NCBI RefSeq assembly: GCF_988243305.1
Contig: NZ_OZ547138.1
Strand: one strand, 5' to 3'
Length of the DNA stretch: 64,000 nucleotides
DNA from: a plasmid
Positions 15,001 through 18,000 of the stretch are shown here, piece after piece. A program made the position numbers. Each line of letters opens with the position of its first letter. Position 1 is the first letter of the stretch.

Positions 15001-18000
15001 GGGCGTCAGCACCGCAGCGCGGACAGCAATCCGGAGATGGTGGAAAAAATGGCTGCCAGATATCGTCATGCCGCCGAACTACACTGGTCCGCAACGCTGG
15101 CAGAAATTGAACGGGTAAAGCGGCTTTATCAGACGAAAATTAAGAAATCCAAAAAATAAGTGGGTTGACTGCCATTGTTGTTCTTCTCCTTCATCATTAA
15201 TGTTAATGTATGCATACATTAGCATTAATGATGGTGCGTTAAAGTATCACTGGTATAATCTGGTAAAGAACATATTGAGAATGAGAACTTATCATGTCGT
15301 CACGCAACTCTGTACATGATTTTATAATGCTGCTCCCGGCGCTGCTGTTGGTTGGGTGGTTAGTTTTGGTGATAATTCTCATGTTTAGGGATGATAAATG
15401 TGACAAAACTTACCGTGAAGGTTCGTTTCCCGAATTTATTTGTCTCCATTCTGATCGCTCGTCACTTCGAGAAACCGATTCTGAGAGACTCATTGTCAAA
15501 TATACAGAAATAAAATCACAAAAATAGGTAAAACCAATAATACTATAGCTAAAAAATAGTTACTTTTCTGTATCACCCTGTCTCTCTCTGCTTTTTCATG
15601 GCTACTGTCATATTTATGTCTGTTGCGCGGTTTTGTTACTTTTTCATGACCGAACCCGAAATTTTGCGCGTCAATAAGAGACGTTGTGTAAACTCAGTCC
15701 TTTTATCTGGCAGGTTAACCCCTATCAATCTTAGGATGAAACCACGCCATCCTCTGTTTGCCTGGTTATTAATTTCATAAAGACGATTGTTTTCCTCTCG
15801 TAGTTTTGTCCACTCTAAACAAAGTGTTATATCATCCAGTTCTGTGATGTGTTTCACTTTTCCATTGACAGTTACAGTGTTTATTCCATTTCCTGTGAGC
15901 ATCATCTTATGCCTTTTTTATCTTCATTTGGGACCGTGCTTTTCTTCGGAGTATCACTATTCGTTAACTGCTGTTTATCAATAAAATTCCTGATGTTATC
16001 AAGTGCTTCCTTTGTTTTTAGAATGCGCTTGATATCCATTTCATCCCGCCCGGTCATTCTTTTTCCGGACAAAAGACGCTCAAGAAGCTCCTGTTTCGCA
16101 TCAGGAGAATCTTTGGCGAGATCCATCAGGTTAAGCAAATCTTCACGATCGAGAGGAAAGAAGTATTTTACAAAATACTTGAAAAGCGAAAGAAAGTAGT
16201 ATGCTGTCCATGCAATACAGAAACCGATTCTGAGAAACTCATTGTCAACTATACAGAAATACAGGTATACAATCAGGAGAATAGGTAAAATCCATAATAC
16301 TATAGCTAAAAAAATATATACGGGGATCAGGCGTCTGTATGCCCGTTCATGTTTATTCAGGATGAATAAAATCTTCTCCGCTTCTGAATCACACATAACA
16401 TTCTCTTCCCATTTTTTCTGATACGTAATGTCCACCTGTTATCAGGAGTGTTTATTGCCCAGAAATATTCTCCTGCTGTGCCTGCGTCCTGAGCCACTTT
16501 TGTTCTAATGTCGCCAGTCTGCGACCGGCACTCTGTGCTTCAGAGTCTGAGACCTGCCCTTTGGGGTGACCATCCAGGCCATAACGTGGGACGCCGGCGA
16601 CAGCTGTCCGCTGCAGATATACGCGGCGGGATGTGATGCAGGACACTGCACAGAGCCATTCGTCCATGGTCAGTTCTGTCTCCGGGTGTTCTGCCAGAAA
16701 TGCCGAAATATCATTGCTTATGCCAATTTTCAGGGGAATAAATCCACCACCTTCAGCACGAAGATGAGGAAACAGGGCCTTTATTTTTTCCACGCACTCG
16801 TGAGTATACTCACGGGTCCAGTGGGAGGGACGTGGAAAACGGTGTCTTTTCTTTTTCTTCTTCCTGGCTGGCGCTTCGGGGATATGTGTTTCGACGGCAG
16901 ATGAATTTATTCCGGCGGGGGCTGATTCTGCCGTCTGTTCAGTAAATACAGGTGCGATAATATCTGTTTTTTCGGATAAGGACGGTGGCGAAAAAGTACG
17001 ACGTTTTTTCACCACAATGACGGGAGTTTTCCTTTCTTCCTGATTTTTTCCCATAAATACCTCGGCTGGCTGGTTTTACTCTTTAATAATATCACAATCC
17101 ATAAATTAGTAAATTTCCCATCAGGTGATTTTTCATGGCTAATAAGTCCATTCTCTGAATATTTATACTCGAGGTAGTTACAGTTATGGCGTGACAGTCG
17201 AATTGATATTCTACTGAACCCTGACAGAAACATGGTTGATATATTCTCTCACTTTAATGTTGTCATGATATAAATAAAAACAATTCATTTGAAAGGATAT
17301 CAGAAGAAGATATCGGGGCGCACAGTTCATCTCTGCCTTTGTTTCATGGGGGGTTCTTTGTATATTTTACTTACTGTTTAAGCATGTACATAAGGAGTGC
17401 TTTCATTATGCCAATGATACTTGTAAAGAAGAATCCCCGGGGCAAAGTGATTCGGGAGCTTAGCAGTGAGGAAGAGACTGCAGTAAAGACGGTCTGTGGA
17501 CTGAAAAGGCCAGCAACCATGGCACAACATAACCTGGCCAATGATCTTCTCCGGGAAATGCGTGAGTATGATGCATGGTTACAGTGTGACTGTATTCCGG
17601 GAGATTCGCCGGCCATGAATTTTGCTGCTCTTAAAAACAATACGGGTACTCTTTATCTGTCCAGTTTTAATCATGAGCATGCACCTGAATGCCCCATGTA
17701 TCGTCAGTTATCCGGAAATGAAGAGGAAACATCCTTCGGAGCAAGCCGGCATCCCGTTAGCACCCGTATAAATTACAGAAACTTTTTACCACCTGATGAC
17801 AGTAATTCTGTTATCAGACTGCAGGCCCGCTCTGCTTACCATAATGGTGAGCGCTCCTCCGTTCGCAAGAAACGTCCGCGCCTTGGCCGTTTACTCCTGT
17901 CGCTTATTGAAGATGCAGGGCTGAATAAACTGGATTCCCTGGCTAATCCCCGTATCCGGACTAATTATCGTGAGTGTCTTGATGCCATACGGCAGGTTAC

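Follow-up and report, generated by a model that had tools for sequence, protein, structure and literature searches.

A segment of about 95 bp occurs twice, in the same orientation, in the 64,000-nucleotide stretch of plasmid DNA analysed here (the window), once intact inside a gene for a small membrane protein and once outside it in broken form, and the question that this raises is how the broken copy came to lie there and whether it does anything. The window matches ColIb-P9 (IncI1), and approximately 470 PLSDB records have the same architecture.

The repeat and the genes around it

When positions 14000-18000 were compared with themselves by blastn, copy A (15470-15556) aligned with copy B (16219-16313) at 85.263% identity over 95 columns, 8 of them gap positions, with an E value of 4e-21 (1.4e-21 for the whole 64-kb window, where blastn found no third copy). 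The repeat search split the same similarity into blocks of 43 nt (95%) and 60 nt (83%) with a mutual offset of 8 nt, and MAFFT placed a single 8-nt gap, ATACAGGT (16259-16266 in copy B) being missing from copy A between 15509 and 15510. The copies are in direct orientation and spaced 749-757 bp apart. The initial annotation, which had described a direct repeat about 85 percent identical, is confirmed in this respect (85.3% over 95 columns, E of about 1e-21); of the two intervals it gave, 15470-15558 was right while 16214-16310 was off by 3-5 nt, blastn giving 16219-16313. Three imperfect 8-nt units (ATACAGAA, ATACAGGT and ATACAATC) make up positions 16251-16274 of copy B, and two such units are found in copy A. 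The tract is slippage-prone, and the L017/P0006 yafA allele has an independent 18-nt deletion in the same loop region.

Copy B lies on the minus strand within yafA (15902-16396, minus strand), where it encodes residues 28-60, from the first transmembrane helix (TM1) through the loop into the start of TM2, and reads VYIFLAIVLWILPILLIVYLYFCIVDNEFLRIGFCIA. The second copy had been assigned to the TM helices of a 177-aa minus-strand protein, and although its location at TM1, loop and TM2 start stands, the length does not, as 177 aa is the maximal ORF from a GTG and every family member starts at the conserved ATG at 16396, which gives 164 aa. YafA is predicted to have its N-terminal segment in the cytoplasm, to cross the membrane with two TM helices and to carry a conserved, helical domain that is again cytoplasmic, and the gene that contains copy B carries the N-terminal motif of the family, of which it is a bona fide member. 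An AlphaFold2 model of YafA built on a 15-sequence alignment had a mean pLDDT of 54.9 and a pTM of 0.24, and a YafA profile search of PDB sequences returned noise only (E of 0.44 or worse). The family is named 'Protein YafA' in UniRef, and its IncF relatives sit between traR and traC. A YafA homologue was non-essential for both maintenance and transfer in the TnSeq study of pESBL (PMC4288162, Table 2), and TraDIS of the I-complex plasmid pMS7163B found only the replicon and parAB to be needed for maintenance, these genes not being named there (PMC10286972).

The start of yaeB (15636-15905, minus strand; 89 aa) overlaps the yafA stop (ATGA), and this gene is an optional cassette, missing from L017-type plasmids and present as a fragment in L006. 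Between its stop and copy A lies spacer S (15557-15634, 77-78 bp), and on the other side of yafA the conserved gene fopA (16452-17054, minus strand), encoding a ProQ/FinO-family RNA chaperone, anchors the variable slot on its right. On the plus strand, yaeA (15294-15527) would encode a 77-aa protein predicted to have one TM helix followed by a charged tail. Upstream of it are an extended -10 motif, TGGTATAAT (15251-15259, plus strand; a consensus match only), and, just before this, a 42-nt near-perfect, operator-like palindrome (15192-15233), a related copy of which is found at 14641-14682, before yadA. A consensus scan for promoters and terminators gave a number of sites at the shuffled expectation. 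YaeA, YaeB, YafA and YadA had no significant match in Pfam, NCBIfam, PADLOC or PHROGs. The AT-rich block of small membrane-protein genes described earlier is real, with a GC content of 0.36-0.39 across approximately 15100-16500 vs 0.50-0.60 in the flanks.

Copy A between yafA and yaeA

On sequence grounds, copy A is a decayed fragment of yafA, homologous to the part coding for TM1, the loop and the start of TM2. This designation is correct because the minus strand of the copy resembles YafA but loses the frame through the missing 8 nt and then meets stops. It is an 87-nt relic of a yafA-type gene that matches YafA codons 28-60 (32 of the 164), and its tblastn and HMM matches to YafA are divided by the indel between two minus frames: the minus strand reads SNYFLAIVLLVLPIFVILFLYI*Q* and then, past the frameshift, IFDNESLRIGFSK*. 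The claims that the first copy hits a stop in the yafA frame and that it has decayed were both borne out, as the frame broken by the 8-nt loss ends in ...FVILFLYI*Q*, and there is no uninterrupted frame through TM1, loop and TM2. Copy A thus combines significant nucleotide and protein similarity to yafA with disabling lesions, as a pseudogene fragment does, and falls short of a full-length YafA of approximately 154-170 aa with the N-terminal motif M.(K/D)SEAEKI.FIL..HE..YRR. Its yafA homology stops at 15470, the start of the yaeA module, and the YafA cytoplasmic motif L(D/S)R..LL.LM....D.PD..QELL.RL.SGK..TGRDE.DI is absent to the left of it. The loop motif CI(V/F)DNE(F/S)LRIGF places copy A in one allele group with YafA members. 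Across the loci, site variability showed copy A to be no more conserved than its flanks.

Read on the plus strand, copy A contributes the final 19 codons of yaeA together with its stop, so that the YaeA tail from codon 59/60 on is the antisense strand of the yafA relic. It is possible, although we would put it below an even chance, that copy A is kept as the functional 3' coding end of yaeA, antisense yafA sequence having been captured by overprinting as a new C-terminus; yaeA would then be a small membrane-protein gene under a repressible promoter. The ORF is, in fact, open at 77-81 codons in the ColIb-type, L005, L011, L015, L016 and L017 backgrounds, there are many YaeA variants in the database, residues 26-45 are invariant in the listed full-length, non-frameshifted variants, and TGGTATAAT, 35 nt upstream, is kept in every locus retaining that part, with the neighbouring 42-nt palindrome in the window and in L016. 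However, PGAP does not call yaeA in RefSeq, no family match was found for YaeA in Pfam, NCBIfam, PADLOC or PHROGs, and sites in the ORF vary as much as those in copy A and in the non-coding spacer. Nei-Gojobori counts, tiny and with too few differences to decide, gave no consistent purifying selection. All changes in the repeat-derived tail are nonsynonymous, and the tail varies by lineage in both length and sequence (KSQK*, QSRK*, NNHKNR*, QVYNQENR*). Variants P0099, P0101 and P0108 are frameshifted, and L007 is without the first 11 codons and the promoter.

Origin of the repeat and its rearrangement

The stretch from the toxin-antitoxin (TA)/yacC genes to fopA is, to judge from its content in related plasmids, a cassette-exchange slot, which may hold yafA alone, yaeB-yafA, an acetyltransferase alone, an acetyltransferase with yafA, or the window's arrangement. 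One plasmid (L003) carries yaeB-yafA-fopA with no yaeA module, copy A or S, its homology with the window beginning exactly at 15634, and another (L006) has a divergent yafA allele alone. Seven loci (L007, L008, L010 and L011-14) carry yaeA, copy A, S, an acetyltransferase and fopA with no copy B; L007, L008, L010 and L011 have the A-type copy with no yafA in the stretch examined. S and the acetyltransferase occur without copy A in L009, yaeA, copy A, S and the acetyltransferase are found together with intact yafA and fopA in L017-20, and in L015 and L016 yaeA and copy A adjoin a plus-strand ProQ-UvrD block. The unit of relic and yaeA is found in IncI1, IncK2/Z and IncFII plasmids and in a ProQ-UvrD-StbA context. 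Both edges of copy A are junctions seen separately elsewhere, the left one (between 15469 and 15470) with the yaeA module and the right one (between 15556 and 15557) with spacer S, which in other plasmids is the upstream region of a hexapeptide (serine) acetyltransferase cassette.

All A-type copies examined, from at least five architectures, have in common the 8-nt loss and two left-hand substitutions, and the A-type relic therefore arose once. In L015 it runs approximately 50 nt further into yafA, equivalent to window positions 16314-16364, and this extension scored 28.2 bits with an N-terminal YafA HMM. A tblastn alignment reaching YafA residue 14, with identical H, E, A and R codons, had prompted the idea that S too is a diverged yafA relic. 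That candidate was rejected, as S scored 1.1 bits with the same HMM, a value reached by 45/500 shuffles.

The initial annotation had taken the repeat for a tandem duplication with decay. On such a model, part of yafA would have been doubled locally in the ColIb-P9 lineage and the distal copy would have decayed in place, the other architectures being deletion or replacement derivatives. The copies are indeed direct, approximately 750 bp apart and 85% identical, the L005-type plasmids described below can be read as derivatives of a deletion between A and B, and the IncF plasmid L022 has true tandem paralogues of the family. We nevertheless consider this origin improbable. The two right flanks, S in one case and the 5' end of yafA in the other, do not align with each other, nor do the left ones; neither the repeat search nor blastn matched any more of 15557-16218 to sequence past 16313, and the unit of repeat plus intervening DNA that a tandem event would leave is absent from the window. 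S is part of the acetyltransferase cassette, and L009 has it without copy A. IncFII plasmids whose 7-kb loci, as examined, show no yafA carry A-type copies in abundance, the YaeA variant P0088 by itself accounting for 723 contigs, and the longer L015 relic cannot derive from the shortened copy A of the window. Comparison with related plasmids thus leaves local duplication unsupported, as A-type and B-type copies each occur alone, copy B having been found in other plasmids without copy A.

Our data point instead, with good though not full confidence, to copy A as a yafA-type stump carried with yaeA and later joined to an intact yaeB-yafA-fopA block, not duplicated on the spot. An old yafA-type gene would have been reduced to a stump, with loss of one of its three 8-nt units leading to the frameshift and stops. 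The relic would have been fused to yaeA and moved with it as one module, the yaeA ORF secondarily acquiring its 3' end from the antisense strand of the relic, until, in the course of repeated cassette exchange and in the ColIb-P9 lineage, recombination at the junction of S and yaeB (between 15634 and 15635) placed it beside the intact genes. Such joining would produce a direct repeat with the spacing of 749-757 bp. This order of events was rebuilt from approximately 20 loci rather than from a full phylogeny, and a tandem pair of complete yafA genes in the distant past, worn down afterwards by insertions, stays conceivable as a source. Two observations are worth recording beside this account: the family forms tandem pairs in IncF plasmids, which counts against it, and the yaeA ORF runs open through copy A at 77-81 codons in five backbones, which could mean selection as coding sequence.

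However it arose, the repeat has a structural consequence, as its two copies serve as a substrate for homologous crossover. In L005 the yaeA side is 218/220 identical (99%) to L017, and exactly at the repeat edge the sequence switches from this L017-like side to a repeat identical to copy B of the window (95/95, vs 79 matches, 8 mismatches and 8 gap positions against copy A of L017), followed by a right flank 820/824 identical (99.5%) to the window. The intervening cassette and the 3' two-thirds of yafA are gone, which leaves a YafA stub of 61 aa (74 aa from the GTG), and this junction is present in a few dozen plasmids. L005-type plasmids are, as their junction reads, the single-copy product predicted for a homologous crossover between the two copies. 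The exact parent was not found among the loci compared, the yafA/fopA side being ColIb-like and the yaeA side L017-like. The opposite reading, that the L005-type is the ancestral junction, was rejected: since its yaeA side is 99% identical to L017, a carrier of the old A-type copy, the B-type repeat must be a recent recombinational replacement.

Function and meaning

As yafA sequence copy A does nothing now, and its only demonstrated effect is structural, as a recombination foothold for deletions. The arrangement had also been seen as a pattern of exclusion or immunity gene families, and this found no backing: YafA, YaeA and YaeB have no significant match in Pfam, NCBIfam, PADLOC or PHROGs and none to the colicin Ib Imm. 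The Imm of the window (20931-21278, minus strand) matches PF03526 at 7e-8, whereas YafA and YaeA do not, and BLASTP of these two against it gave E values of 6.7 and 5.2, that is, no similarity. Pfam and NCBIfam searches of YafA and YaeA for exclusion families at E<=1 returned noise only, PADLOC anti-phage models matched none of YaeA, YaeB, YafA and YadA, and the pESBL TnSeq work screened maintenance and transfer (PMC4288162). Colicin immunity and IncI1 entry-exclusion proteins are likewise small inner-membrane proteins of the same plasmid type; YafA and YaeA, however, have neither similarity to Imm nor a match to immunity or exclusion models, and the yafA locus is unlinked to cib/imm or transfer genes. 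The general intuition about the YafA family is not absurd, given the true tandem paralogues in L022.

It is very doubtful that the yaeA transcript acts, through copy A, as a trans-encoded antisense RNA against the part of the yafA mRNA made from copy B, perhaps FopA-assisted, and we give hardly any weight to its regulating yafA translation or stability with FopA as chaperone. The predicted duplex (-108 kcal/mol, ddG -77.5, vs -28 +/- 5 for shuffles) is an automatic consequence of the repeat, and although a FinO/ProQ-family gene adjoins the yaeA-copy A unit in every architecture having it, and FopA, an RNA chaperone, accelerates antisense pairing (PMC7491321), the unit is common in plasmids showing no yafA target nearby, the conservation of copy A does not exceed that of its flanks, there is no Rfam match, no terminator-like site lies in 15500-15660 to define an sRNA 3' end, and in L017-type plasmids, which have both copies, the 18-nt deletion takes much of the best-pairing block out of yafA. 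From RIP-seq with FopA, the ligands named as the top ones comprise Inc, STnc1590, mgtM and STnc700, the yaeA/yafA locus not being among them (PMC7491321). The locus resembles type I toxin-antitoxin antisense RNAs and FinP/traJ-FinO control in having an mRNA for a small hydrophobic protein, a putative, partly complementary transcript from a nearby divergent or duplicated segment, and an adjacent FinO-family chaperone gene; here, however, a discrete sRNA is not in evidence, the complementarity is unconserved and the supposed target is often absent, and YafA, with 164 aa and a conserved soluble domain, is unlike type I toxins. Were such regulation true, FopA would have a further plasmid-encoded RNA pair in addition to Inc/repZ, and a pseudogene stump would have been recruited as a regulatory RNA.

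The closest likeness is to the gene remnants left by cassette exchange in the mosaic regions of conjugative plasmids, which are also short, frameshifted fragments of a resident gene between recombination junctions, in an AT-rich variable slot whose content differs among related plasmids, with a direct repeat that mediates deletions. Copy A differs from these in that its antisense strand is built into a small ORF, yaeA, with which it travels into unrelated backbones. As to the YafA proteins of I-complex plasmids, copy B belongs to a genuine member of this family, whereas copy A, from the same allele group, holds a frameshifted fraction of the codons without the cytoplasmic motif (LDRxxLLxLM...SGKxxTGRDExDI). 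Copy A is a plasmid scar of the ordinary sort, on a plasmid that is among the best known, and has little weight alone. It does, however, mark the stretch from TA/yacC to fopA as an exchange slot common to I-complex and some IncF plasmids, useful when resistance plasmids of the IncI1, IncK and IncB/O groups are typed or compared, and it accounts for a recurrent 0.75-kb deletion variant, the L005-type, as repeat-mediated. YafA itself belongs to a plasmid family that is widespread and uncharacterised, and some members of which lie within the transfer operons of IncF plasmids.

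The repeat and the frameshifted yafA fragment

Self-comparison by blastn bore out the direct repeat noted in the initial annotation, as positions 15470-15556 (copy A) and 16219-16313 (copy B) align at 85.3% identity over 95 columns with a single 8-nt gap (E=4e-21); a repeat search split the same similarity into two blocks, one of 43 nt (95%) and one of 60 nt (83%), with an offset of 8 nt between them, and blastn found no third copy within the 64 kb. The surrounding segment (15150-16500) matches ColIb-P9 (NC_002122.1, 4411-5761), as it does many further IncI1 plasmids, at 100% identity, and at least 80% of it is covered by about 470 PLSDB records; its GC content (36-39% in 15100-16500) contrasts with 50-60% in the flanks. 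With gene names taken from pSTM709 and the RefSeq annotation, the local map reads yacC (a 3'-5' exonuclease gene, plus strand, 13721-14569), yadA (plus, ending at 15159), yaeA (plus, 15294-15527, 77 aa, no PGAP call), yaeB (minus, 15636-15905), yafA (minus, 15902-16396), fopA (ProQ/FinO family, minus, 16452-17054) and yagA (plus). The yafA product had been taken to be 177 aa long, a length that corresponds to the maximal ORF (15902-16435), whose GTG start lies ahead of the conserved one. Because the family alignment fixes the start at ATG 16396, the position used by all YafA family members, IncF homologues included, the protein is instead 164 aa long.

Copy B encodes yafA codons 28-60, which span TM1, a short loop and the start of TM2. 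Copy A, read on the minus strand, yields YFLAIVLLVLPIFVILFLYI and then a stop, and resumes only after a frame shift as FDNESLRIGFSK*, which identifies it as a frameshifted yafA fragment; the suggestion of a decayed membrane-protein gene was, in this respect, right. The 8 nt absent from copy A are the middle unit, ATACAGGT (copy B, 16259-16266), of three imperfect 8-nt units in the loop-coding region of yafA (ATACAGAA/ATACAGGT/ATACAATC, 16251-16274), and the matching tract in copy A (15502-15517) has one unit fewer. Tracts of short imperfect repeats are of a type prone to unit loss by slippage. An independent in-frame 18-nt deletion affects the same loop region in the yafA allele P0006 of locus L017, one of the loci from other plasmids and contigs compared here (about 5070-5100 in that locus). 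In L011, copy A carries a further 1-nt deletion at the indel site, so that 9 nt are lost and the minus-strand frame is restored across the relic.

All A-type copies lack the 8 nt and carry the same substitutions at 15487 and 15500, and thus descend from one event. Locus L015 bears the A-type marks, yet its yafA homology runs about 50 nt beyond the end of copy A in the window, to the equivalent of 16314-16364; this extension, ILNKHERAYKRLIPV on the minus strand, reaches 28.2 bits with an N-terminal YafA HMM, and at several right-hand diagnostic sites L015 lies between the A and B types. These features fit a relic that branched off early and has decayed less, rather than a recent hybrid of A and B. 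In the window, likeness to YafA is not detectable in the spacer that takes the place of this extension to the right of copy A (S, 15557-15634), where the N-terminal HMM score of 1.1 was matched by 45 of 500 shuffles. The copy A relic is old and was formerly longer.

A slot with interchangeable contents

The initial annotation had attributed the repeat to tandem duplication. Such an origin is not supported by the sequences compared, as those flanking copies A and B do not align to each other and copy A, copy B and S are separable in other plasmids. In the ColIb-type arrangement of the window, the yaeA promoter and ORF (X, 15244-15469) are followed by copy A, S, yaeB, yafA with copy B, and fopA. 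Locus L003 (IncI-gamma/K1) carries RelE/ParE genes and yaeB-yafA-fopA, with homology that begins exactly at 15634, and is without X, copy A and S, while L006 has yacC, a yaeB fragment and a yafA allele about 80% identical. In L007, L008, L010 and L011-L014, X, copy A and S precede a plus-strand hexapeptide acetyltransferase gene and fopA, and no copy B was found in these examined loci; the corresponding YaeA variant, P0088, occurs in 723 contigs, mostly on IncFII backbones. L009 (IncFIB) has S, the acetyltransferase gene, fopA and yagA without copy A, L017-L020 have X, copy A, S, the acetyltransferase gene, an intact 156-aa yafA and fopA, and in L015 and L016 X and copy A adjoin a plus-strand ProQ-UvrD-StbA block. 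Copy A thus occurs in loci that lack copy B, and both copy B and S occur in loci that lack copy A. The segment from the toxin-antitoxin/yacC genes to fopA is a cassette-exchange slot, the contents of which are interchangeable.

Across L003-L020, exact breakpoints recur at 15469|15470, 15556|15557, 15634|15635 and 16472|16473, and the alternative contents of the slot are yaeB, the hexapeptide (serine) acetyltransferase gene, yafA alleles, or none of these. From about 20 loci we infer an order of events in which the left edge of copy A would be an older fusion to the yaeA module, the right edge would have been cut when the acetyltransferase cassette, with its upstream region S, entered an existing pseudogene, and the acetyltransferase side would later have been replaced in the ColIb-P9 lineage by yaeB-yafA-fopA at 15634|15635, a junction also used by L003. 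An ORF of 181 aa with a TM segment at its C-terminus, which matches no family, lies between a ParE-type toxin gene and the yaeA module (L005, 1757-2302; L017, 2713-3258); its counterpart in L007 (2218-2762) is split into ORFs of 95 and 113 aa and is probably disrupted. The module of yaeA and yafA relic is also found upstream of a plus-strand ProQ/FinO gene, followed by genes for a UvrD-like helicase and StbA/ParM, in the Logan contigs ERR12054107_148 (L015, 257-1607) and ERR2748032_1965 (L016, 90-1316). The first 66-68 nt of that ProQ/FinO gene match the fopA 5' end at 82-85% identity, inverted relative to the window, and a ProQ/FinO gene adjoins the module in every context seen.

Recombination is the only consequence of the repeat that is backed by evidence. 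Plasmids of the L005 type (IncK2/Z and others) have one repeat copy: the yaeA side of L005 is identical at 218 of 220 positions to L017, which carries an A-type copy, switches exactly at the left edge of the repeat to 95/95 identity with copy B of the window, and continues beyond the repeat at 820/824 into the yafA 5' end and fopA. This is what would be expected of a crossover in the first 17 identical bases of the repeat, which removes the cassette between the copies together with the 3'-terminal two-thirds of yafA; what is left is an 81-aa YaeA and a 74-aa ORF (61 aa from the ATG) ending in ...RIGFSK*. As the one-piece junction was found in 2 of 30 rows sampled at even spacing from 916 records, a few dozen plasmids carry it.

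The yaeA ORF and its transcript

The last 19 codons and the stop of yaeA are the antisense of the yafA relic. We consider it rather unlikely that yaeA is functional; were it so, copy A could still have originated as a relic. The ORF is open over 77-81 codons in six backgrounds, the protein database holds many variants, and upstream of yaeA there is a conserved extended -10 motif, TGGTATAAT (15251-15259), which a 42-nt palindrome abuts in the window and L016. However, yaeA is without a RefSeq call, L007 is without its start codon and promoter, the tail varies in length and frameshifted variants occur; the synonymous and nonsynonymous differences are too few to reveal purifying selection, and those in the tail are all nonsynonymous; site variability, as we counted it on the alignment, does not differ between the ORF (about 18/176), copy A (about 11/87) and the spacer (about 8/78). 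Since the repeat is direct and the genes lie on opposite strands, a yaeA transcript would be complementary to yafA mRNA, with a predicted duplex of -108 kcal/mol versus -28 for shuffles, and a FinO-family chaperone gene is always adjacent; a role as antisense RNA acting on yafA mRNA is nonetheless highly improbable, as the module of yaeA and copy A is common where no yafA is nearby, the 18-nt deletion in L017 yafA takes out a large part of the block that pairs best, conservation of copy A does not exceed that of its flanks, neither an Rfam match nor a terminator-like site was found, and the main reported ligands of FopA (Inc, STnc1590, mgtM and STnc700) do not include this locus (PMC7491321).

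Related near-perfect palindromes with the core TTAATGnTAATGTATGnnTACATTAGCATTAA lie just upstream of yadA (14641-14682) and of yaeA (15192-15233), the second abutting the extended -10 motif; the window has no others, against a chance expectation of 0, and the pair looks like a putative shared operator for a repressor. Many IncF-type plasmids also match the segment 15150-15244, at about 94-96%. In the yaeA leader, 7 nt before the ATG, a 6-nt unit is tandemly duplicated (TGAGAA-TGAGAA, 15276-15287) only in the window (ColIb-P9-type) among the seven loci compared that keep this part; the other six have it once. An 81-aa ORF in L023 (Logan contig SRR25724007_162, 3001-3246), downstream of topoisomerase III, hha and hns genes on a plasmid-like contig, has a yaeA-like N-terminal TM segment, SRNSVH.FIMLLPALLLVG.LVLVIILM, and a C-terminus unlike that of yaeA; as a module, the N-terminal half of yaeA may be mobile in its own right.

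The YafA family

The pattern of exclusion or immunity genes proposed in the initial annotation is not supported, as YafA has no significant match in Pfam, NCBIfam, PADLOC or PHROGs and does not resemble the colicin Ib immunity protein that the plasmid itself encodes, which, unlike YafA, matches an immunity family. The AlphaFold model of YafA is poor. In pESBL, homologues of YafA, FopA and YagA were classed as dispensable for both maintenance and transfer (PMC4288162, Table 2). Members of the family occur only on enterobacterial plasmids, yet the family is wider than the I-complex: about 1,500 plasmid records, of which all those examined are IncF-type, encode full-length homologues at 31-38% identity, which sit directly after traR, between traR and traC (plasmids NZ_CP070065.1 and CP077380.1; L021, 3001-3474; L022, 2595-3008 and 3001-3474), the two adjacent paralogues of L022 being 64% identical. 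Within the family, the TM region varies most and a cytoplasmic motif is conserved best; the signature consists of an N-terminal M.KSEAEKI.FIL..HE..YRR, two variable TM helices and LSRQ.LL.LM...PD..QELL.RLLSGK.LTGRDE.DI, and neither Pfam nor NCBIfam holds a model for it.

Copy A is a gene remnant of an ordinary kind, set in a mosaic slot of the plasmid. As by-products of its analysis, the contents of this slot are mapped more clearly, a recurrent deletion variant, the L005 type, is explained, and an uncharacterised YafA family is recognised that extends into IncF transfer operons.
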